A stretch of 64,000 nt of DNA, from contig CALXSH010000003.1 in assembly GCA_944391065.1 (NCBI GenBank), forward strand, positions 7,871-71,870, given 5' to 3'. The notes under the pieces were generated by a model, which saw only the letters and a program-made list of their open reading frames with translations, was not told where the DNA came from and ran no database searches. Both the position numbers and the translations under genes were made by a program. Within the stretch, counting starts at the first letter, position 1, and every line of letters starts with the position of its first letter. Positions 51,888-64,000 of this stretch are shown piece after piece. This DNA comes from an uncultured Kiritimatiellota bacterium (GTDB taxonomy: Bacteria; Verrucomicrobiota; Kiritimatiellia; RFP12; DVOR01).

Positions 51888-52211
51888 ATGACGATCGATC
51901 ATCTCACCGCCGACACCTTTGATGCGGCCATCGCTTCCGGTGTCGTCCTTGTGGATTTCTGGGCCACCTGGTGCGGCCCCTGCAAGATGCAGGGCGCCAT
52001 CCTCGACAAGATGACCCTCCCCCCGGAACTCGACGGCAAGGTTCGTGTCTGCAAGCTCGACATCGACCAGGCCCCCATGGTCGCCGCCAAGTTCCGCGTC
52101 CAGACCATTCCCACGATCCTTATCTTCAAGGACGGCAAGGTCGTGGACACGTCGATCGGCGTCCAGCGCGCCGACGTTCTCGCCGAAAAGCTTACAGCGG
52201 CCCTCGCCTGA
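51888..52211 (+). CDS. trxA: Thioredoxin
   Basis: ATG at 51888 with AAGGAG RBS. WCGPC active site (VLVDFWATWCGPCKM). 107 aa. Confidence 0.9.
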   Translation: MTIDHLTADTFDAAIASGVVLVDFWATWCGPCKMQGAILDKMTLPPELDGKVRVCKLDIDQAPMVAAKFRVQTIPTILIFKDGKVVDTSIGVQRADVLAEKLTAALA

Positions 52212-52231
52212 CGCGGGGCCGCTTTTCTTTT

Positions 52232-52786
52232 ATGAAGCGCCGTCTCTTCTGCCTCGCCGCCTTGCTGCTGGCCGTTTTGCCGGCCTATGCCCAGCGCGGC
52301 GTCATCTCTCCCGCTCAGCAGGCCTACGCCCAGCAGGCCCAGATTCTTCGTGATCTTCAGCGCTCCGTCCAGGTCCTCACCGCCCGCGTCGAAGCCGTTG
52401 ACACCCGACTCTCCGCGATGGCCTCGCGCATCGAAGCCTTGGAGCGCGGCGGCGAATCCGCCACCAAGGACGAGGTCGCCGCCCTCCGCGCCGACCTGAA
52501 TGCCGTCCGCGCCTCCCAAGGTACCCTTCGGGCCGAAATCGTCGACGACATTGCCGGCAAAATGGCCGCACTTCAGGCCAAGCAGGCCGCCGCCCAGGCC
52601 AGAGCCGCCAGAGAGGCCGCCGCGGCTGCCAAGTCCGGCTACAGTCACACCGTCGAGGCCGGCCAGACCCTCTCGGCCATTGCCCAGCACTACAAGGTCT
52701 CCGTCAAGGCCATCATGCGGGCCAATAACCTCACCGATCCGAGCCTCATCCGCGTCGGTCAGGTGCTCTTCGTCCCCGATCCCTGA
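52232..52786 (+). CDS. Secreted coiled-coil protein with C-terminal LysM peptidoglycan-binding domain
   Basis: Signal peptide MKRRLFCLAALLLAVLPAYAQ. Gln/Ala-rich coiled coil. LysM motif YSHTVEAGQTLSAIAQHYKVSVKAIMRANNLTDPSLIRVGQVLFVP. Confidence 0.7.
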   Translation: MKRRLFCLAALLLAVLPAYAQRGVISPAQQAYAQQAQILRDLQRSVQVLTARVEAVDTRLSAMASRIEALERGGESATKDEVAALRADLNAVRASQGTLRAEIVDDIAGKMAALQAKQAAAQARAAREAAAAAKSGYSHTVEAGQTLSAIAQHYKVSVKAIMRANNLTDPSLIRVGQVLFVPDP

Positions 52787-52851
52787 CCGTCCGGACGCCC
52801 CTAACCCCATCCCCGTTCCCGTCTCTTCACCCCAAGTCCAAGGTTAAAGCC

Positions 52852-54597
52852 ATGCTCGCCTCCTTCTTCGCCCAGGCCGCCGGCGCCTCCTTCTCCGCCG
52901 GCGTCGCCATCGTTGCCGCCCTCCTTGGCGGTCTCGGCATCTTCCTGCTCGGCATGGAGCAGATCTCTACCGGCCTTCAGGCCGTCGCCGGCCCGCGCAT
53001 GCGCAAGCTCGTCGCCGCCGCCACGACCAACCGCTTTGCCGGCATCACCACCGGTACCGTCGTCACGGCCATTATCCAGAGCTCCTCCGTCACCACCGTC
53101 ATGGTTGTCGGCATGGTCACCTCCGGCATCATGACCCTTGTCCAGGCCATCAACGTCATCATCGGCGCCAATATCGGTACCACCGTCACCGCCTGGCTGG
53201 TCGCCACCTTCCCCAAGATCGGACCCACCACCATCATGGGCATCATCGGTGTCGCTGCCATCGTCTATCTCTTTGCCAAACGCGAAAGCTGGAAGTACAT
53301 TGGCCTCATCTTCCTCGGCCTTGGCCTCATCTTCTTCGGCCTTGACCTCATCAACAACGCCCTCGAGCCTATCTCCCAATCTGACGGCCTCCGCGAAGCC
53401 ATGGCTCTCTTCAGCGCCGTCGAGCCCGATGGTTCCTTCTACCTCTGGGGCATGATCAAGTGCGTCTTCGTCGGTGCCATCGCCACCGCCATCGTCCAGA
53501 GCTCCTCGGCCACCACCGGTATCGCCATCATCCTCGTCACGACCGGCAACATCGACTTCTACACTGCCGCGACCCTCGTGCTCGGCATGAACATCGGCAC
53601 CACCATCACCGCTTGGCTCGCTGCCCTCGGCGCCCCCACCAATGCCCGCCGCGCTGCCTTGGCCCACTCCCTCTTCAACGTCATCGGCGTGATTATCATG
53701 GTTCCCCTCTTCCCGATCCTCCTGCCGATCGCCAATGACGTCTTCAGCATCGTTCAGACCGACGCCAACGGCGTCGTCGACACCGCCCGCGTCGCCTTCG
53801 GCGTCGCCGGCGTTCACACGGCCTTCAACGTCGTCAATACCTGCATCTTCCTCCCCCTCGTCCATCCCTTCGCCTGGCTCATCACCCGCATCATCCCCGA
53901 CTCCAAGATTCGCGAGAATCCCCGCCTCACCGTCATCGACTCCACCCGCGTCGCCCCTGTCGTCGCCGTCGAACAGGCCCGCAAGGAGGTCGAATACATG
54001 TGCTCCCGCTGCGAGGAGATGCTTGACGACTTCCGCAAGGTCCTCACCGGCGAATCGGACGATGAATTGGAGCAGAATCTCTTCCGCTCCGAGGACGCCC
54101 TCGACGTCATCCAGCATGAGGTCTCCACCTTCCTCGGCGTCATCATGTCCAAGAACCTCCCCTCCGAGGTCGCCCTCCGCGCCCGCATGCTTCTGCGTGT
54201 CGCCGACGAATACGAGTCGGTCTCCGACGAAGTCGCCGCCCTCCTTCGTCAGATCCTGCGTATGCGCAAGAGCGGGATGAAGATCTCCGACCGCGGCGCC
54301 TCCGACATCCTCAGCCTCCATGACCTCTGCCGCGGTTTTGCCGCCACCGTCAACGAAGGCTTCCGCCAGGGCAAGGCCCATGCCCAGGACGTCCTTAGCC
54401 ATCTCCATACCGACGCCGCCACCATCTCTGCCCGCGTGAAAGAAATCCGCAAGGCCCAGATGACCCGTATGGCCGACCACGACCCGACCATCGATCCCCT
54501 CTGCGTCGTCGTCGTCCTCGACGTCCTCAATATCTACCGCCGTCTCAAGGAAGACTGCCTCAATATCGGCGAAGCCATGCTCGACGAAGGCCGCTGA
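52852..54597 (+). CDS. Na+/phosphate cotransporter family protein (NptA-like, with PhoU-like C-terminal domain)
   Basis: 581 aa. Duplicated Na/Pi-cotransporter repeats with QSSSxTT motifs (IIQSSSVTTVMVVG and IVQSSSATTGIAI). C-terminal cytoplasmic helical PhoU-like region. Confidence 0.85.
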   Translation: MLASFFAQAAGASFSAGVAIVAALLGGLGIFLLGMEQISTGLQAVAGPRMRKLVAAATTNRFAGITTGTVVTAIIQSSSVTTVMVVGMVTSGIMTLVQAINVIIGANIGTTVTAWLVATFPKIGPTTIMGIIGVAAIVYLFAKRESWKYIGLIFLGLGLIFFGLDLINNALEPISQSDGLREAMALFSAVEPDGSFYLWGMIKCVFVGAIATAIVQSSSATTGIAIILVTTGNIDFYTAATLVLGMNIGTTITAWLAALGAPTNARRAALAHSLFNVIGVIIMVPLFPILLPIANDVFSIVQTDANGVVDTARVAFGVAGVHTAFNVVNTCIFLPLVHPFAWLITRIIPDSKIRENPRLTVIDSTRVAPVVAVEQARKEVEYMCSRCEEMLDDFRKVLTGESDDELEQNLFRSEDALDVIQHEVSTFLGVIMSKNLPSEVALRARMLLRVADEYESVSDEVAALLRQILRMRKSGMKISDRGASDILSLHDLCRGFAATVNEGFRQGKAHAQDVLSHLHTDAATISARVKEIRKAQMTRMADHDPTIDPLCVVVVLDVLNIYRRLKEDCLNIGEAMLDEGR

Positions 54598-54672
54598 GAC
54601 CGCTCGGCGTCCTCATCGGGCGGCGGACTCCCGCCTCATGACGCATCCGGGATTGCCCGGGCTCCGGCACGG

Positions 54673-54710
54673 AAAAAGCCACGGCACATGCCGTGGCTGT
54701 CCGTTTTGTT
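54673..54710. terminator. Rho-independent (bidirectional) terminator between the Na/Pi transporter gene and ettA
   Basis: AAAAAGCCACGGCA-catg-CCGTGGCTGTCCGTTTT. Confidence 0.6.
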
Positions 54711-54781
54711 GATACAAAAGCAAACTCCCGCTGCCGATCCGGTCGCCGCAGGCTTCCGATGCCCGAAGGGCACGTGCAGTG

Positions 54782-56437
54782 TCAGTGACGGACGGGGCGG
54801 AACTTGATGCGGTGCGGCTTATCGGCGTCGTCGCCGAGCTCCTTGCGGCGCATCTCGTGGTAGTCGGAGTAGGAACCCTCGAACCAGCGGACCTTGGAGT
54901 CGCCCTCAAAGGCGAGGATGTGGGTCGCGATGCGGTCGAGGAACCAGCGGTCGTGGGAGACGACGACGGCGCAGCCGCCGAAGTCCTGGATGCCCTCTTC
55001 AAGCGAACGGAGGGTGCCGACGTCGAGGTCGTTGGTCGGTTCGTCGAGGAGGAGCAGGTTACCGCCGGCGCGGAGGAGCTTGGCGAGGTGGACGCGGTTG
55101 CGCTCGCCGCCGGAGAGGACGCCGACCTTCTTCTGCTGGTCGGTGCCGCGGAGGTTGAAGCGCGAACAGTAGGCGCGGCCGTTCATGAGACCCTTGCCGG
55201 CGAGATTGACGTAGTCGCCGCCGCCGGTGATTTCCTCGTAGACGGTGTGGTTGGGGTCGAGGGCCTCGCGGCTCTGGTCGACGTAGCTGAGGACGACGGT
55301 CTCGCCGACGCGGAGCTCGCCGGAGGTGGGCTTGAGTTTGCCGGTGATGAGCTTGAAGAGGGTGGTCTTGCCGGCGCCGTTGGCGCCGATGACGCCGACG
55401 ATGCCGCCGCGGGGAAGGTCGAAGTTCACGTGCTCGAAGAGGATGCGGTCGCCGAAGGCCATGGAGAGGTCGGTGGCGCGGACGACGAGGTTGCCCAGGC
55501 GCGGGCCGGGGGGGATCTGGATTTTGAGCTCTTCCTCGCGGGTGTCGACCTGTTTGGCGACGAGCTCCTCGTAGCGGGCCAGGCGGGCCTTGCCCTTGGC
55601 GCGGCGGCCGGAGGGGTTGGTGTGGATCCACTCGAGCTCTTGCTGGATCATCTTGCGGCGGCTCTCGGCCTGCTTGGCCTGGGCGGCCATCATGGCCTGC
55701 TTCTGTTCGAGCCACTGCTCGTAGTTGCCCTTGTAGGGGTAGGTGCGGCCGGCGTCCATCTCAAGGATCCACTCGGTGACGTTGTTGAGGAAGTAGCGGT
55801 CGTGGGTGACGACGATGAGGGTGCCCTTGAACTTCTTGAGGAAGGCTTCGATCCAGGCGACGGATTCGGCGTCGAGGTGGTTGGTGGGTTCGTCCAGGAG
55901 GAGGACGTCGGGATTGGAAATCAGGATCCGGCACATGGCGACGCGGCGCTTTTCGCCGCCGGAGAGGACGCCGGCTTTGGTGTCGGGGTCGGCGCAGCGG
56001 AGGGCCTCCATGGCGAGCTCGACCTGGTGGTCAAGGTTCCAGAGGTCATTGGCGTCAATCTGCTCCTGGATGCGGGCCATTTCTTCCTCGGCGCCGGGTT
56101 CGTCGAGGCGGCAGCAGAGGTCTTCGTACTTCTCGAGGAGGGCCTGGGCGCCGGCAACGCCCTCCATGACGCATTCGCGGACGGTCTTGTCGGGGTCGAG
56201 CTCGGGCTCCTGGGGGAGGTAGCCGATCTTGGCGTTTTTGGCGACGAGGCAGGTGCCCATGTAGTCTTTGTCGAGGCCGGCCAGGATTTTGAGGAGAGAG
56301 GATTTGCCGGAGCCGTTGGCGCCGATGACGCCGATGTGGGCGCCGTGGAAAAAGGCCAGATTGACGTCGTCCAGGATCACCTTCTTTTCGTGGTGCTTGG
56401 TGACGTTCATGAGGTTGAAAATGTATTCGCCTGCCAT
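54782..56437 (-). CDS. ettA: ABC-F family ATPase, energy-dependent translational throttle EttA-like
   Basis: 551 aa. Two ABC domains (Walker A GANGSGKSS and GANGAGKTT; signatures LSGGEKRR and LSGGERNR) separated by a PtIM-like linker. No TMD. EttA-like length and arm region. Confidence 0.85.
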   Translation of the reverse strand: MAGEYIFNLMNVTKHHEKKVILDDVNLAFFHGAHIGVIGANGSGKSSLLKILAGLDKDYMGTCLVAKNAKIGYLPQEPELDPDKTVRECVMEGVAGAQALLEKYEDLCCRLDEPGAEEEMARIQEQIDANDLWNLDHQVELAMEALRCADPDTKAGVLSGGEKRRVAMCRILISNPDVLLLDEPTNHLDAESVAWIEAFLKKFKGTLIVVTHDRYFLNNVTEWILEMDAGRTYPYKGNYEQWLEQKQAMMAAQAKQAESRRKMIQQELEWIHTNPSGRRAKGKARLARYEELVAKQVDTREEELKIQIPPGPRLGNLVVRATDLSMAFGDRILFEHVNFDLPRGGIVGVIGANGAGKTTLFKLITGKLKPTSGELRVGETVVLSYVDQSREALDPNHTVYEEITGGGDYVNLAGKGLMNGRAYCSRFNLRGTDQQKKVGVLSGGERNRVHLAKLLRAGGNLLLLDEPTNDLDVGTLRSLEEGIQDFGGCAVVVSHDRWFLDRIATHILAFEGDSKVRWFEGSYSDYHEMRRKELGDDADKPHRIKFRPVRH

Positions 56438-56450
56438 GGCGGGGACTCCT

Positions 56451-57146
56451 TTATGCTTTCAGGGGCTTGATGTCGTGGTAGAGAAAGGCGATCTCGGGGA
56501 TCTCAAAATCGATGTGATGGTGGCCGCAGTACCAGCGGCGGAAGAGGAGCCGGCGGCGGAGGACGTCAAGCCACTGTTCGGTGGATGTGTCGAGCGGAAT
56601 GCCGGCGGCGCGGTCATCGTGGTGGGATGGGGGAAGGTAGCTGAGCGGACAGGTGTGGCTGAGAACGGCGTCGACCCGCCAACCGCAGGCGTCCAAGGCG
56701 GCCTCGGTGCGGGCGCGGATTTCGGGCGTGGGCTGCTCGTCGTCGAACCACGGCCAGCGGTTGAGCAGCCGGTTGTACTTGTCCACCGAATAGGCGCCGC
56801 CGATGACGAGGCAGCGCTTGCCCTCCAGGTCGTAGACAGCCCCGTCGACGGGGTAGACGATATTGGGGTAGCGCAGGTCGGTGTAGACTTTGCCGCCGAA
56901 TCCGTCGCGCAGGACCATGCCGGGTACGTGCTCCGGACGCATTTCATGGTTGCCGTGGATGCAGAAGAGGGAGATGGGCAGCTGGGCAAGGTGCTGGCGG
57001 AGGGCATTGGCCCGGGCGTCGGCGTAATAATTGATGCCGGCGTCGCCGAGGATGATCAGGGTGTCGTCACGGGTGACGCTGCGGCTGCGGCAGAAGTCGT
57101 CGACCTCGCCGAATTCGCCGTGCTTGTCACCCGTGACCCAGATCAT
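56451..57146 (-). CDS. Calcineurin-like metallophosphoesterase
   Basis: MIWVTGDKHGEF...IILGDAGINY...FCIHGNHE...GHHH: the canonical D-x-H / GD / GNH(E) / GH metal-ligand motifs. Confidence 0.7.
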   Translation of the reverse strand: MIWVTGDKHGEFGEVDDFCRSRSVTRDDTLIILGDAGINYYADARANALRQHLAQLPISLFCIHGNHEMRPEHVPGMVLRDGFGGKVYTDLRYPNIVYPVDGAVYDLEGKRCLVIGGAYSVDKYNRLLNRWPWFDDEQPTPEIRARTEAALDACGWRVDAVLSHTCPLSYLPPSHHDDRAAGIPLDTSTEQWLDVLRRRLLFRRWYCGHHHIDFEIPEIAFLYHDIKPLKA

Positions 57147-57161
57147 GCCCGGTCCCCGGGA

Positions 57162-59765
57162 TTACTCGGCCCCGTCGCTCCCGGCCGCGCTCCCGTCGGC
57201 TTCGGCCACGGTTTCCGCGTCGGCCCCGGCAGCGGCCCCGGCAGCGGCCCCTTCGGCGGTCTCGGCGTCTTCCTCCGCGGGGGCGATGGAGAAGGATGCC
57301 ATGGTGACGCCCTCCTGCAGTCGGATGAAGTTGACGCCCGCTGCGGTGCGGCCGAGGACGGAGACCTCCGCGACGCGGGTGCGGACGAGAAGCCCGGCGG
57401 TGGAGAGCAGGACAAGCGTCTCGTCGCCGCGGACGGTGGCGATGCCGATGAGTTTGCCGTTGCGCTCGTTGTCGCGCGGCATGCCGATTACGCCGGAGGA
57501 GCCGCGGTGGGTGACGCGGAAGTCACCGAAGGCGGTACGCTTGCCGCGGCCGTTCTCGGAGACGAAGAGGAGCGCGCTGTCGGCGGCCTCGACGGCCATG
57601 CCGCAGACGCGGTCAGCGTCGGACTTCAGGCGCATGCCGCAGACGCCCATGGCGTTGCGTCCGACACGGCGGACCTCGTCGATGAGGAAGGCATTGACCA
57701 GACCGTCGCGGGAGGCCATGAAGACCTTGTCGCCCGGCTGGGTAAGCATGACGCGAACGATGGCATTGCCCTCGGCGATATTGATGGCGATGAGGCCGGA
57801 ACGGTTGACGTTGCGGTAATCGGAGAGCGCCGTACGTTTAATCGTGCCGTCGGTCAGGGCAAAGGTGATGTCGCGGTCCTCGTCAAAGGAGCGGATTGCG
57901 AGCAATTCGACGATGTGCTCCTCCTTGGGCAGGCCGGGCAGGATGTTGCTGACGTGGGTGCCGGCCGCGGTGCGGCGGCACTCGGCGATGGCGAAGGTGC
58001 GCGCGGAGAAAACGCGGCCGCGGTCGGTGAAGAAGAGGAGCGTATCGTGCGTCATCGGGACGTAGAGACGCTCGATGAAGTCCTCCTCCTTGAGCAGGAC
58101 GCCGCGCTTGCCGCGTCCGCCGCGGCGCTGAGCCTCGTACTCGGAGAGCGAGGTGCGCTTGAGATAACCGCGGTGGGAGAGGGTGATGACGCAGGGTTCG
58201 TCGGCGATAAGATCCTCAATGCCGACATCGGCCGCGTCGGATTCGAGCTGGGTGCGGCGGTCGCCTTCCTTGGTGTAGGCGGCCTTGAGCCCCTCGAGGT
58301 CGTCTTTGATGAGACCGAAGACGCGGGCGGGATTGGCCAGGATGTCGCGCAGGTCGGCGATAGAGGCGCGAAGGGCGGTCTGCTCGTCGAGCAGTTTGCC
58401 GCGTTCCAGACCGGTCAACTGGCGCAGGCGCATCTCGAGGATGGCGGAGACCTGGGCGTCGGAGAAGCCGAAGCGCCCGCAGAGGCGCGCCTTGGCCTCG
58501 TCGTTGTTGGCCGAGTCACGGATGATGTGGATGACCTCGTCGAGATTATCCTGGGCGATGAGGAGGCCGTCGACAATGTGGAGGCGCTCCTCGGCGCGGC
58601 GGAGGTCAAACTTCGCGCGGCGGGTGTGGACCTCAAAGCGGTGGTCGACGTAGCAGCGGAAGAAATCGCGCAGCGTCATGCGGCGCGGACGGCCGTGGTC
58701 AAGCGCGATCATGTTCGCGCCGAAGGTGGACTGCAGCTCGGTGTGCTTGTAGAGCTGATTGAGAATGATTTCGGCGGGATTCTTCGCGTTCTGCTTAATC
58801 TCGATGACGACGCGGATGCCGTCGCGCTTGGAGGATTCGTCGCGGATGTCGGCGATGCCCTCGATTACGCCCTCCTTGACCAGGTCGGCCATGTGGGTGA
58901 CCATGACGGCCTTGTTGACCATGTACGGGATGGAGGTGATGATGATGGCCTCGCGGCGCCCCGGGGCGGCGGGCTCAATCGTCGCCTCGCCGCGGACGGT
59001 CACCGAACCGCGGCCGGTTCGGTACATGGCGGCAATGCCGGCCAGACCGCAGATCTTGGCGCCGGTGGGGAAGTCGGGACCTTTGACGAAGCGCATGAGA
59101 TCGTCAATGGTGGCCTCGGGGTGGTCGACAAAATAAATGAGGCCGTCGCAGAGCTCGCGCAGATTGTGCGGGGGGATGTTGGTGGCCATGCCGACGGCAA
59201 TGCCCTGGGAGCCGTTGAGCAGCAGGTTGGGCAGCTTGCTCGGAAGCACCTTGGGCTCGCGCTCTGTGCCGTCGTAGTTCGGCACGAAGTCGACCGTGTC
59301 CTTCTCGATGTCGGCCATCATCTCGCCGGCGATTTTCGCCATGCGCGACTCGGTGTAACGCATGGCCGCGGCGCCGTCGCCGTCGATGGTGCCGAAGTTG
59401 CCGTGGCCGTCGACCAACGGGACGCGCAGGCTGAACCACTGCGCCATGCGCACCAGCGTGTCGTAGATGGAAAAGTCGCCGTGGGGATGGTATTTACCCA
59501 TGACGTCGCCGACGATGCGCGCCGACTTGCGGTAGGGCGAAGTGTAAAAATTCTTGTTCTCGTGCATCGTGTAGAGCACACGTCGGTGCACGGGCTTGAA
59601 ACCGTCGCGGGCGTCGGGAAGGGCGCGCGCCACAATGACGCTCATGGAGTAGTCGATGTAAGAGTTCTTCATCTCCTCTTCGACATCGATTGAGGCAAGG
59701 CGGGTGTCGGCGGCCGGCGCAAGGGCGGTCTCGGCGGCCTGGGGCACGGATGTTTCGTCGTCCAT
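57162..59765 (-). CDS. gyrA: DNA gyrase subunit A
   Basis: Start MDDETSVPQ at 59765. [38 protein letters not shown]. Active-site Tyr region ([10 protein letters not shown]). C-terminal beta-pinwheel repeats and acidic tail. TATACT -10-like element upstream. Confidence 0.95.
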
Positions 59766-60005
59766 CGGGGATCCTTTCAAAGGTTCATCAAGTATAGCAT
59801 AATCCGCCCCCTTACGGGCACTTCCCTCCTCGCCGCCTGGCCGCGCAGCGTCCATCGTGACGCGTCATCCATCCCGACGCACAGCCTGCCGGCAGGGGTA
59901 GGACCTCGCAGACCGGCAACCCCTCCCCGCGCTCCTGGCCCTCGGCGCGTTTCCTCCCGGACATCAGTGCCATCCGACCGCGACACCGCCCAGAATCGAC
60001 ATCTG

Positions 60006-60086
60006 ACCCTATAGGGTAACCTCACACCACCCTATAGGGTGATACTGTATCACCCTATAGGGTCATCAGTCATCACCCTATAGGGT
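60006..60086. repeat. Array of four ACCCTATAGGGT palindromes at exact 23-bp phasing (spacers not conserved)
   Basis: Palindromes at 60006, 60029, 60052 and 60075 (copies 2-4 extend to the 14-bp CACCCTATAGGGTG/A). Lies between the gyrA upstream region and the DUF1796 gene, at the high-GC / low-GC boundary. Confidence 0.9.
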
Positions 60087-60408
60087 AAGCTATCCGGTAT
60101 TGCCCTCACCCGTGTCCGGACATCCCCGCTTTTGGGCCAGGACCCGCCCCAGTCCCGCTCCTGTCCCACCGTATTCTTTCCCGCCGCCCCATCACCGTCG
60201 GCCTCGGCGAAGCCACCAAGGCCCGCAAACTCCCCCTGCCGGCCCTCCTACGACGCACCCAAAGACGCGGTACCCCCTCTCGGCAGTGCGTCATCTCATG
60301 TACACGCTTCACGTATGCCTCATGTTTGCATATGGCTTTCCGCATATGGTACAGTGTGCCCAAAGTTACGGCGATGAAATGCGTGATATTGAATGGAGCG
60401 GAAGCACA

Positions 60409-61184
60409 TGAGTGAGACCCGGATATATGATTGTATTGTGCCACTGGGATGCAATTGCTCTTCGGCGCTGCAGTTGCGGTTTCGAAAACTCCGTCAGTGC
60501 TCTCTGCCGTTCGATTGGCTGTACTATCAGGGCGATTGTCTTCCTGAGACTTATGTCGGAATGATTGAATCTCACTTTGCGGCTTGGCTCGAGAGAAAGA
60601 ATCTTGAGGTCAAGGATACGCGCAAAGAGCCGGGAAGCGGTCGCCATTCCACTGTGACGGATCTGCAGTGCGGTATTACATTTCTTCATGATTTTCTGAC
60701 TTATCCGTTGACGGATACGGAGTTGGAGACTGTCCGCGCAAAATATCAGCGGCGGATCGACCGTCTTTACGCACTGTGCGGGCATGCCGACAGGATTCTC
60801 TTTGTGATTACCGGTACAGCCGGGCAACTGAATCGTGAGAGACTCCTTGAGACTCGGCGGCGCCTGTCTGCCCTCTTCCCGCAGGCGGCCATTGATATCT
60901 TTGCGGTTATCACAGAGGCTTCGACCTTTGAAATGGTGGAGAGCCCCGAGAATGGCCTTTACCTTTCGCTGACGACGAGGAAACGGTCAACGTATGATTT
61001 GCACCATAGGCCCTGGGAGTGGTCGTGGCTGGATTCGGTCTGTTTGTCCGATGCAATGCGGGACATTCTCGGGCATGCGCCGCAGAAGCCTGCGGGCTTG
61101 TTGGACAGGTGGATTTACAAGCTTTATAAACACCTGAAAAAGACTCTGATCCGACGCGGCAGACTCCCACCGGAGTGGGACTGA
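60409..61184 (+). CDS. DUF1796-family putative papain-like cysteine peptidase
   Basis: ATG at 60409 with GGAG RBS. N-terminal motif IVPLGCNCSSALQLRF...SLPFDWLYY typical of DUF1796. GC about 52%, far below flanking DNA. Confidence 0.55.
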
Positions 61185-61599
61185 TATTTCGGGGCCCCCG
61201 TAAAAGTCCGTGGCAGTCAACCGAGCAAGACAGACGCTAGAAAGCAATCATGAAGGGGTAAATGTGTGTCTGGAAAAGGACGCTGGGTGACAGAAGGGGC
61301 GCGCAGCCCCTCAGGTCTGGTTGCAGTGTAGCTTCAGTCCAAGTGTCTAGTTTTGATATATACAAGAAGTCTAGTTTGAAATATACACGACAGACATTTA
61401 GGTCGATGGCCCCAGCCCCTCCCGTCTTTTGCTATACTCCGTCCGCACGCAGCGCACCACCCAGGAGTGAAATGAAAGTCCGTAATAGGGCCATTGAAGG
61501 CTTCAAGATCCCCGATTCTCGATTTTCTCGCGAAGGGCGCGGATACTCTACCTATAATGAGGTCTGCAACCGCACTGCAGGCACCTGCGCAACCATTGA

Positions 61600-61900
61600 C
61601 CGGGCGGCGGGAGCCTCTTCGCCAAGGGTGGCATCCGAGGATTTTGTTGGCAGGCCGCCCCGCACACGCAGGGCAAGCCCGTCCACATCATCCGCGGAGC
61701 CGTCTGGGACGTCGCCGTCGATATCCGTAGAGGTCCTTCACCTCTCAGCCACTCTGTCGCGGCCAAACTCTCCGCCGACAATGGTCTTTGTCTCGACGCC
61801 CTTGTGCCAGATCCCTGTTGGTGAGTCCTCGGTGTTCCGCGGAACCTTACCGAGAAGGCCCCCGTCATCCTTTCCTCGCCGACATTGAACCTTGGGGAGG
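61600..61900 (+). pseudogene. rmlC: Remnant of dTDP-4-dehydrorhamnose 3,5-epimerase gene (rmlC): internally deleted and frameshifted
   Basis: In-frame translation gives ...FAKGGIRGFCWQAAPHTQGKPVHIIRGAVWDVAVDIRRGPSP...KLSADNG. This matches RmlC blocks (ERGFF...; PPFAQxKLVRxVRGAxFDVAVDxRRGSPT; ELSAENK) but lacks about 35 aa between them, has an in-frame stop at 61597, and loses frame after about 61800. Confidence 0.5.
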
Positions 61901-61930
61901 ACCTTCAACCACGCTCTTTGAGGACCAATA

Positions 61931-62947
61931 ATGATTGCTTTCACGAATAGTCCGCCGCTGGCCACCTACATTCTCTTGGCCTATCGTCAAGCAGACTTGG
62001 TCGGTAAGGCCATTGAATCTGCCTTGGCTCAGACCTATCCCAATCTCGAGATTATCATCTCCGACGACTGCTCTCCTGATGATACTTGGGAGGTTATTCA
62101 GAAGACCGTCGAGGGTTACAAGGGACCTCATAAGATCATCCTTAACCGTACTGAGCACAACGGCGGTCTCGTCGGTCACATAAACGCCCTCTTTGCCATG
62201 GCTCACGGCGAGGTCTTCATCACTGCCGGCGGCGATGACATCGCCTATCCCGATCGCGTCGCCCGAGTCATGGAAGTCTTCCGAGAACATCCCGAGGCCT
62301 CCATGGTCGGGTCGGAATATGACACCATCGACGCTCAGGGAAACCGCGGCCTTCCCAAGAACCATCGTAATACCGGCTGCGTCGTCCGTTACCCCTATGA
62401 CTCGCTCGAGGCCCTCTACGACACCTTTCCCTGCTTCTGCGGCGCCGTGCTCGCCTACCGCCGCGACGTCTTCGATCGGTTCGGGCCCTTGGATCCCGCC
62501 AGTTGGGCCGAAGACATCACGCTTGGTTTTCGCGCTTCCCTCCTCGGGGAGATTTGGTGGATTGAATCACCTCTCGTCCACTATCGCATACAGGGCGGTG
62601 TCTCCACGTCTACCGTTCGGTGCATCGCTCCGGTCGTCCGCTGTGCCGTCGGGACGCTGGCGATTTATCGCCAGCTGGAGGCCGACGTCCGTCTGCTTGG
62701 ACGGGATGAACGTTATGCCGCATTGCTAGCCCGGATTTCCGATGATATCGTCAGATACACGAACAACGTCCGTGCCCTGACGGCCCCGTGGCCCTGGCCC
62801 TCGATTCCTGCCGGGATCGCTTATTACCGCCATGGCAACGAGTCCCGTGGCATGCGGCGGCGAGCGCTTCTGATGTCGCTGGTGCCCCGGTTTCTCCGTC
62901 CCGGCTTCTTCCGGCTGCTTCGCTTCCGTATGGCTCGGCGGGCGTGA
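61931..62947 (+). CDS. Glycosyltransferase family 2 protein
   Basis: N-terminal GT-A fold with acidic motifs IIISDDCSPDDT and ITAGGDDIAYPDR. 338 aa. Arg-rich C-terminal tail. Confidence 0.75.
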   Translation: MIAFTNSPPLATYILLAYRQADLVGKAIESALAQTYPNLEIIISDDCSPDDTWEVIQKTVEGYKGPHKIILNRTEHNGGLVGHINALFAMAHGEVFITAGGDDIAYPDRVARVMEVFREHPEASMVGSEYDTIDAQGNRGLPKNHRNTGCVVRYPYDSLEALYDTFPCFCGAVLAYRRDVFDRFGPLDPASWAEDITLGFRASLLGEIWWIESPLVHYRIQGGVSTSTVRCIAPVVRCAVGTLAIYRQLEADVRLLGRDERYAALLARISDDIVRYTNNVRALTAPWPWPSIPAGIAYYRHGNESRGMRRRALLMSLVPRFLRPGFFRLLRFRMARRA

Positions 62948-63057
62948 TTCTCGCCGGGCGGGTTCCCTATAGAGAAATCATAAGATACGCCACAGAAGGG
63001 GCCTGTGGCGTGTGCCGACGGACCGATGCTTCAGACGTCTTCTCAGAGGCACTCCGC

Positions 63058-63639
63058 TCAGAGCGCGGGCCCTTTGCGGGGAAGCCGACAGATAACCCAA
63101 AGCCCGAAGAGCTTCAGCGTCGCGCAACCGTTGCCAAAGCGCCATACGAAGCGCCGACGTCTGTCAAACGGCGACAAATCCTTCAGTGTAACTACCTGTC
63201 CAGCTCCATCGTCGAAGCGTCTATTCCGTCCGGCAGCGACCGCATCCCGGAATCCCTTGATGGACGCATCAAGATGGTTCCAGCCCAGTGAATCCTTCAG
63301 CGACCCCAAATCGTACTCCCACCACTGAGTTGCTTCAATCTCGCGGATCTGATCCGCTGAACGCATTCGAATCAGTCTGGCCGGAATTCCTCCGGCGATG
63401 GCACAGGGCGGGACATCTTTGGTGACGACGGCACCGGCCCCGATTATGGCCCCGCGCCCGACCGTTATACCGCCCATGATAATCACGCGACTTCCAATCC
63501 AGACATCGTGACCGAGAATGACAGGTCCATCACAGGTCGTGTGGGGGCGCAATGCAGCTTTGGTCTTCCAGTATGGCAGATGGGTTATAGGGGACGTCGT
63601 CAGACAAGTCAGGGGATATATCAGCGGCGAGAATGTCAT
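63058..63639 (-). pseudogene. Hexapeptide-repeat xenobiotic acetyltransferase (Vat/CatB-like), apparently N-terminally degraded
   Basis: The ORF carries the LbH core and XAT C-terminal motif (GHDVWIGSRVIIMGGITVGRGAIIGAGAVVTKDVPPCAIAGGIPARLIR...WWEYDL). The expected about 110-aa N-terminal half is absent. An upstream alternate frame (about 63640-63710) encodes a short CIAPP fragment resembling the XAT FCSIGPG block, implying a deletion plus frameshift. Confidence 0.45.
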
Positions 63640-63924
63640 CCTCGCGTTCGGAAAATGTCAATGCGCCTACGCTCAGAGGCGTAGACGCATTTCGGATGGC
63701 GAGTGACGGATGTGAGAATTGCTAAAGAACGCTGAGGAGGGGGCGTTGCTGTGGAGAGAGGAATGTGCTATCGTTGCGCTGTCATGCGAAGATGCGGGCT
63801 GTGCGTTCGGTAATGCTCAGTCTTTGCTGGGTAATGGATAGCGCACCGATTGAATCGAAGGTGCATGAGAAATGCGATGCGCCCTTGTGGGCAGAGCAAT
63901 TTTCACGGAAAGGAGCCTGAGACA

Positions 63925-64000
63925 ATGGCGGTGGAGAGAACACGAGGCGTTGCGATCGAACCCATCGGAAAGCCCTATGGCAAGACGGTCGGTGTGGCGA
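63925..64000 (+). CDS. Hypothetical protein, 5' fragment (continues beyond window)
   Basis: AAGGAG RBS followed by ATG at 63925 (MAVERTRGVAIEPIGKPYGKTVGVA...). Confidence 0.25.
   Translation, partial: MAVERTRGVAIEPIGKPYGKTVGVA

Follow-up and report, generated by a model that had tools for sequence, protein, structure and literature searches.

The gyrA-proximal edge of a probable strain-variable surface-polysaccharide locus in an uncultured Kiritimatiellota bacterium

The final 3.7 kb of a 64,000-nucleotide stretch of DNA from an uncultured Kiritimatiellota bacterium (contig CALXSH010000003.1; the whole stretch is called the window below) differ sharply in composition from the DNA that precedes them and carry genes and gene remnants related to glycan synthesis. 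We conclude that the segment from 60.2 to 64.0 kb is probably the gyrA-proximal edge of a strain-variable surface-polysaccharide locus, of the exopolysaccharide (EPS) or O-antigen-like kind, that measures at least 12.7 kb. Both the tract of low G+C (GC) content and the series of glycan genes continue past the end of the window, so what lies within it is the margin of a large glycan locus and not a 3.7-kb islet. Within the window the segment holds two working genes, coding for a DUF1796 protein and a family 2 glycosyltransferase (GT2), and two pseudogenes, one of rmlC and one of a hexapeptide-repeat acetyltransferase. This division follows from the ratios of non-synonymous to synonymous substitution rates (dN/dS), the loss of a start codon, and lesions shared between strains. 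An earlier note, made from the letters of this DNA, had recognized the surface-glycan gene content, which stands; its picture of a small islet decaying as a whole does not, for reasons set out below.

Composition and extent of the low-GC tract

The GC content is 0.667 over positions 1-60279 and 0.565 over positions 60280-64000, with the drop falling at about 60.2-60.3 kb, in agreement with the break that the earlier note had placed at about 60.28 kb. Sixty 1-kb windows before 60 kb have a mean GC of 0.667 (standard deviation 0.029, minimum 0.606), against which the four 1-kb windows of the low-GC tract, at 0.544-0.597, have z scores of -2.4 to -4.3. The GC content at third codon positions (GC3) takes a much larger step: it is 0.82-0.91 in five core genes (LysM, NaPi, ABC-F, metallophosphatase, and gyrA) versus 0.60 in the DUF1796 gene, 0.69 in the GT2 gene, and 0.61 in the hexapeptide gene. 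The tract thus lies about 10 GC points and 20-25 GC3 points under the genome, and it shows the deviation from host composition expected of a genomic island (GC 0.565 versus 0.667, GC3 0.60-0.70 versus 0.82-0.91).

Positions 52000-64000 of the window are 100% identical to locus L001, which was taken from an 88.5-kb ENA metagenome scaffold (ERZ28613591:scaffold_126) and adds about 9 kb beyond the window end; the coordinate offset is 51930, such that L001 14998 is window-equivalent 66928. In this continuation GC stays at 0.51-0.63 up to the last fetched base, which brings the tract to at least 12.7 kb. Our readings of the tract cover these 12.7 kb of low-GC DNA (window plus L001), and scaffold_126 runs about 7.7 kb further. 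The continuation codes, in order, for a 299-amino-acid (aa) protein whose gene begins in the window, a deacetylase (Polysacc_deac_1), a 304-aa protein of no assigned family, a split pyruvyl transferase (PS_pyruv_trans), and a 252-aa protein on the minus strand, followed by a transposase-like stretch, a poly-C(26)/(CA)n tract, and genes for FdtA, a hexapeptide transferase, and DegT. By these family assignments, a glycosyltransferase (GT2) and sugar-modifying enzymes (Polysacc_deac_1, PS_pyruv_trans, FdtA, hexapeptide transferase, DegT) are clustered here.

On its other side the tract adjoins gyrA (57162-59855, minus strand), whose product is 69% identical to that of the Kiritimatiellae metagenome-assembled genome RGIG3817 from a roe-deer caecum and at most 50% identical to all other sequences retrieved in a scan of one genome per species. 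By this gyrA match the bacterium belongs to the Kiritimatiellae, and it is probably associated with the gut of a host.

Two working genes and two pseudogenes

The four genes that decide the reading of the segment within the window are as follows.

60408..61184, plus strand: DUF1796 gene (Pfam PF08795), intact, 258 aa; alternative start at 60393
61472..61901, plus strand: pseudogene of rmlC (dTDP-4-dehydrorhamnose 3,5-epimerase), identified by PF00908, by alignment with an intact RmlC, and by DNA match to annotated rfbC
61931..62947, plus strand: GT2 glycosyltransferase gene (Pfam PF00535), intact, 338 aa
63058..63639, minus strand: hexapeptide-repeat (left-handed beta-helix) O-acetyltransferase gene, 5'-truncated, 193 aa, identified by Vat/CatB models and the lengths of homologues

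These assignments bear out what the earlier note had read from the letters: a DUF1796 gene of the kind typical of glycan loci, an internally deleted and frameshifted rmlC, an intact GT2 gene, and an acetyltransferase gene without its N-terminal part. Selection on them was estimated by the Nei-Gojobori method from the window and strain L087, and for DUF1796 also from strain L002. Eight assemblies of the locus (L001-L005, L087, and L088-L089), from different samples and produced by ENA submitters and by Logan, were compared.

The GT2 gene is under strong purifying selection, with 13 synonymous substitutions versus 1 non-synonymous (dN/dS 0.025; a Fisher test was run), compared with a dN/dS of 0.07 for gyrA. 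Its product matches PF00535 over residues 14-183 (E 9e-26, 91.2 bits against a cut-off of 23.3), its translation shows SDD and GGDD motifs, and its length agrees with that of its homologues, which are 300-345 aa long. The best match outside the species is 39-46% identical, and matches are spread across Gammaproteobacteria and Kiritimatiellota. The DUF1796 gene is also under purifying selection (dN/dS 0.167 versus L087 and 0.155 versus L002), even though the alleles of different strains diverge by about 5-6%. The protein matches PF08795 (E 1.7e-9, 38.2 bits, cut-off 23), can be aligned over its whole length with homologues of 250-265 aa, and keeps the conserved Cys17, Asp36, and His94 of the family; in 40 homologues the Cys is invariant and the His nearly so.

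The acetyltransferase remnant presents a different picture. Its nearest full-length homologues, of 273-286 aa, have about 80 more N-terminal residues, and when the 273-aa acetyltransferase of L174, a locus of another organism with 54% GC, is aligned to the remnant by tblastn, only residues 81-268 find a counterpart. The start codon of the remnant is not conserved, being ATG in the window, GTG in L002 and L004, and displaced in L087. Selection on the remnant is relaxed and not distinguishable from a dN/dS of 1 (0.59, from 15 synonymous and 27 non-synonymous substitutions; p = 0.14 against neutrality). The truncation is identical in all eight assemblies.

The earlier note had compared this remnant with the resistance enzymes Vat and CatB and had entertained a role in antibiotic modification. 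What it shares with those enzymes is the C-terminal part of their models, where it can be aligned with the left-handed beta-helix coils and with the tail that contains WW; unlike them, it is without the N-terminal 80 or so residues, and its subfamily is extended at the C-terminus by about 75 aa, common to the remnant and its full-length homologues. The NCBIfam models (NF000311 and NF000490) are matched only at profile positions of about 95-190, their C-terminal half, with 82.4 bits against a cut-off of 300 and 79.4 against 350, and related models are likewise matched in that half only and far under their cut-offs. The nearest full-length homologue, P0003 (45% identical), is encoded in L174, with a DUF1796 gene on one side and an intact rmlC on the other, and a further homologue, P0006, lies between a gene for a GT8-hexapeptide fusion and genes for an epimerase, GT2, GT8, and a deacetylase. 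Since the full-length relatives sit inside glycan loci and the Vat/CatB scores fall far under the cut-offs, the fragment is most likely what is left of a sugar O-acetyltransferase, not of a resistance gene, and should not be counted as a Vat/CatB resistance gene.

The rmlC remnant is colinear with the intact 184-aa RmlC of L174, its pieces being distributed over three reading frames.

61472-61582, plus strand: residues 1-39, first frame
61612-61785, plus strand: residues 50-107, second frame
61819-61857, plus strand: residues 156-168, second frame, with an in-frame stop
61863-61901, plus strand: residues 171-183, third frame (RHPFLADIEPWGG against RHPLLADIEPYVG)

Two frameshifts, one in-frame stop, and the deletion of about 48 codons (108-155) separate it from a working gene. 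PF00908 is matched only at positions 49-103 of 168 in one frame (E 2.8e-11), over a region that is 43% identical to E. coli RfbC residues 54-107, and the catalytic His of the GxHxQ motif is replaced by Cys (GFCWQ versus GLHFQ in E. coli and GMHWQ in L174). By these alignments the remnant would provide neither a full-length cupin domain in one frame nor the catalytic His of an RmlC. E. coli RfbA and RfbD find no match in the window or related loci, such that no companion rml genes are seen nearby. The lesions are identical in L001-L005 and L087, and among L001-L005 no indel differences occur inside either remnant.

In several assemblies an open reading frame (ORF) of 208 aa (61262-61888) has been called over the rmlC remnant as a hypothetical protein. 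We rejected it as a new gene: its dN/dS is near-neutral at 0.69 (substitution counts of 6 and 12), and its frame is not that in which the underlying DNA is homologous to RmlC. The ORF runs through the rmlC pseudogene in the wrong frame and is kept open by high GC. For annotators, both the 208-aa "hypothetical protein" and the 193-aa "hexapeptide transferase" called at this locus are products of pseudogenes.

Strain mosaicism at a fixed chromosomal site

The order gyrA, DUF1796, rmlC remnant, GT2, truncated acetyltransferase is common to L001, L002, and L087. Core genes of the strains differ by 0.1-1.3%, and segments of the locus by 0.2-10%, in blocks. Between the window and L002 the divergence is 4.7% in the spacer of gyrA and DUF1796, 6.1% in DUF1796, and 0.2-1.1% in the remainder, and between the window and L087 it is 5.2% in DUF1796, 3.7% in the rmlC remnant, 1.4% in GT2, and 7.4% in the acetyltransferase remnant. 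Colinearity with L087 stops altogether at window position 63709, where L087 continues with about 2.1 kb that are not present in the window strain and code for another GT2 (334 aa) and a deacetylase. Homology then returns at 93.6% identity, after which L087 is without 2.4 kb that are present in the window strain. One further strain differs in another way.

L003 8-1189, no strand given: rve-family transposase gene, 393 aa, junction at window position ~61264; found in one strain (Logan ERR4096601)

This transposase gene abuts the rmlC remnant where other strains have DUF1796, and the first ~100 nucleotides (nt) past the junction are 83% identical to the window. Such a pattern is that of a recombinational mosaic whose chromosomal position stays constant, as is known from O-antigen and capsule loci: content varies between strains, with the cassettes of L001 and L087 as the clearest case, beside a left flank (gyrA) that is conserved.

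The left edge of the variable segment can be placed as follows.

60170..60300, no strand: left edge of the variable low-GC segment, placed by the GC break and by between-strain divergence, which rises from here

An insertion/deletion polymorphism of 56 bp, rich in C (60178-60233), falls within this interval; the window strain has the segment, and L002 and L087 lack it.

Continuation of the locus past the window

Three features of the continuation bear on the history of the locus.

63926..64000, plus strand: first part of a 299-aa gene without a Pfam family, which runs off the window and is complete in L001
L001 14998-16172 (window-equivalent 66928-68102), no strand given: PS_pyruv_trans gene split into two overlapping frames of 263 and 191 aa, as read from ORFs
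L001 17150-17760 (window-equivalent ~69080-69690), no strand given: stretch resembling, by eye and with no profile match behind it, an rve-type transposase remnant, then a run of ~26 C and (CA)n/(CT)n repeats

The frame of the pyruvyl transferase changes near L001 15670-15690, where there is no homopolymer tract, and the split is also found in L003 and, as far as their contigs run, in L002 and L004; the gene is likely a further pseudogene of the locus. The transposase-like stretch and the simple repeats lie within a 1.2-kb non-coding gap of the glycan locus. Beyond it, FdtA, hexapeptide transferase, and DegT constitute the module by which a 3-acetamido-3,6-dideoxy sugar is made, so the locus still uses a dTDP-sugar pathway. 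The rmlC relic fits the leftover of an earlier version of the locus, one that would have contained rhamnose.

Alternative explanations

It is scarcely credible that errors of assembly or sequencing produced the frameshifts and truncations. The source is a metagenome assembly, and a poly-C/(CA)n tract further along the contig shows the region to be hard to assemble; the lesions of rmlC are nevertheless the same in L001-L005 and L087, and that of the acetyltransferase also in L088-L089, all from different samples and assemblers. Because they recur in independent assemblies, drawn from at least six samples, the lesions are not assembly errors. It is also improbable, in our estimate, that the segment is what that note proposed, a small, recently acquired surface-polysaccharide or antibiotic-modification island undergoing reductive decay. 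A deviant composition, two pseudogenes in 3.7 kb, and partial NCBIfam matches to Vat and CatB speak for such an island. Yet the tract extends over at least 12.7 kb, of which 9 kb or more lie outside the window and carry more polysaccharide genes, GT2 and DUF1796 remain under purifying selection, and the arrangement is common to three strains and several further assemblies. Differing strains, moreover, each hold genes that the other lacks, such that change has not been by loss only, and the Vat/CatB scores and the glycan-locus setting of the relatives discussed above leave little to the resistance reading. Signs of mobility were sought as well: no link to an integrase, tRNA, plasmid, or phage was found. 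A tRNA scan of L001 and L003 found no tRNA, the left border has no integrase, with insertion sequence (IS) genes and remnants only inside the locus, and in blastn comparisons with plasmids and phages the tract matched only at conserved domains, over stretches of 100-150 nt. The left border therefore bears none of the mobility signatures (tRNA, integrase, direct repeats) by which genomic islands are often recognized.

The same left border without mobility genes, the constant position of the locus in all strains seen, and the failure to find a donor would suit a locus that is ancestral and vertically inherited, its low GC arising from locus-specific mutation or selection and its remnants from local pseudogenisation. 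So would the GC3 of some genes in the continuation, which is native-like (0.84) in the 252-aa minus-strand gene and intermediate (0.75-0.76) in DegT and FdtA. We regard this explanation as unlikely, in view of the sharp GC3 step at the border (from 0.87 to 0.60), the block-wise mosaic divergence between 99%-identical strains, which indicates imported alleles, the IS genes and remnants within the locus, and the similar gene kits found elsewhere at 52-58% GC. The L174 locus is an example: at 54% GC it holds an intact kit of a 184-aa RmlC, a 273-aa acetyltransferase, two DUF1796 proteins, GT2, GT4, and a deacetylase. Because the GC of such kits is close to that of the tract (55-59%), a horizontal origin is plausible on grounds of composition. 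Several points nonetheless weigh against reading the segment as the edge of an exchangeable polysaccharide locus. RGIG3817, the only close relative in the gyrA scan, has its contig cut inside gyrA, and the locus may be either acquired or ancestral with a deviant composition. No donor lineage was identified, the best GT2 match elsewhere being 39-46% identical. The dN/dS values of the two remnants rest on few substitutions (15 synonymous and 27 non-synonymous in one, counts of 6 and 12 in the other). Among the called genes of the 12.7 kb there is no flippase or polymerase (Wzx/Wzy), ABC-transporter, or export gene, so the assignment to an EPS or O-antigen-like pathway is tentative; the DNA read ends short of the right border.

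On balance we favour a locus that keeps a fixed chromosomal site beside gyrA while recombination and insertion sequences probably rearrange the genes it contains. Its working genes would be those for DUF1796, GT2, the deacetylase, and the downstream aminosugar module of FdtA, acetyltransferase, and DegT, whose presumed product is a surface glycan. The rmlC pseudogene, the truncated O-acetyltransferase, the frameshifted pyruvyl transferase, and the IS remnant would be scars of earlier cassettes since replaced. The low GC would then represent the usual signature of glycan genes that circulate horizontally, probably among lineages of about 52-58% GC, and would not be that of a recent small island decaying as a whole.

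Repeats and other candidate sites

Three non-coding elements of the segment and its border deserve mention.

60006..60092, no strand: palindrome array, four perfect 12-bp copies of ACCCTATAGGGT at an exact spacing of 23 bp, in the divergent gyrA/DUF1796 intergenic region
61346-61365 (GTCTAGTTTTGATATATACA) and 61370-61388 (GTCTAGTTTGAAATATACA), plus strand: imperfect tandem direct repeat of a 19/20-mer with a 24-bp period, read from the sequence
63660..63709, no strand: junction element, a hairpin with a 13-bp stem (63660-63691) followed by TCGGATGGCGAGTGACG, defined by strain comparison, fold, and recurrence

With 0.01 occurrences expected by chance, the ACCCTATAGGGT array is found nowhere else in the window and is unchanged in L002 except for one single-nucleotide polymorphism in a spacer. 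In its layout it looks like an operator or iteron-type array and may be a protein-binding site. The earlier note had taken it for the left bound of the segment; the array is real, but the compositional break follows about 190 bp to its right, and the array is a nearby landmark only.

The direct repeat, which the earlier note had also seen, lies upstream of the rmlC remnant in a gap rich in AT, is present in L003 as well, and may mark an old promoter or operator region. Two repeat-finding tools did not list it; besides the palindrome array they gave two short tandem rows of low score and some short matches in two copies. An Rfam search of the whole window returned no family at gathering score, and consensus scans for promoters and terminators found no more sites than in shuffled sequence.

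Between the junction element and the point where the acetyltransferase remnant is truncated at its 5' end lie 20 nt, and L087 diverges from the window directly after its ...GAGTGACG. The hairpin has a minus-strand fold z of -4.3. A second copy lies about 6.1 kb onward, to the right of the poly-C tract (L001 17836-17884, window-equivalent 69766-69814), where a 22-nt core recurs at L001 17863-17884 between flanks that differ on both sides, making two independent copies only. The rest of the window holds no further copy, and none turned up when JGI metagenome contigs were scanned for the exact pattern. The L003 transposase does not account for the element, having no relative in the window, L001, L002, or L087. 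Candidate roles for the element are those of a cassette boundary, of an operon leader, and of a mobile element's end. As a boundary or leader it would be comparable in role to attC sites or to JUMPstart/ops sequences. The more specific proposal, that it is a dedicated cassette-boundary site at which glycan modules of this Kiritimatiellae lineage swap or from which their operons are driven, with the truncation of the acetyltransferase as a by-product, strikes us as unlikely.

The DUF1796 family

PF08795 bears the label "putative papain-like cysteine peptidase", a name that implies a papain-like (clan CA) fold. The family is large, with 1,212 representatives at E<=1e-3, and its member in the window was modelled by AlphaFold2 with a predicted local distance difference test (pLDDT) score of 93.7. 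A Foldseek search of this model against the PDB returned nothing significant, and the sequence profile found no meaningful match among PDB sequences; no papain-like (clan CA) fold is detectable in this protein. A literature search found nothing useful for DUF1796 or for 2G6T.

Metagenome loci were searched for DUF1796 homologues with a 10-sequence alignment, a 40-sequence alignment being too diverse. Among 137 neighbouring ORFs at 41 loci the commonest coded for GT2, NAD-epimerases, more DUF1796 proteins, RmlD-like proteins, DegT, GT4, Polysacc_synt_2, GDP-mannose dehydratase, and pyruvyl transferase, an enrichment judged against the general rarity of such genes without a matched control. The homologues P0121 and P0272 likewise lie within glycan loci. 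By this gene neighbourhood DUF1796 appears to be a family associated with glycan loci, and such an association, together with the lack of a detectable papain-like fold, could redirect functional work on the family.

Comparison with known polysaccharide loci

The biology described here is real but ordinary, in an unusual host. Its chief use is as a guide to annotation; it also shows how surface glycans may vary from strain to strain in a little-known, uncultured lineage of the PVC (Planctomycetes, Verrucomicrobia, and Chlamydiae) group, variation of a kind that is relevant to phage-host interactions in gut communities. Clusters for O-antigen, capsule, and EPS synthesis occupy fixed sites by housekeeping genes, are lower in GC than their surroundings, exchange cassettes, and accumulate IS elements and gene remnants at their junctions. 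With such clusters, e.g. E. coli rfb between galF and gnd, the locus beside gyrA shares its fixed position, its low GC, and its strain-variable cassettes, as well as glycosyltransferases combined with dTDP-sugar modification genes and the presence of IS elements and remnants at junctions. It differs from rfb-type clusters in belonging to a PVC-group host and in coding, within the 12.7 kb read, for no wzx/wzy, ABC-transporter, or export functions. A further difference lies in what it carries instead, for DUF1796, the deacetylase, and the pyruvyl transferase are more typical of loci for EPS or secondary cell-wall polymers.

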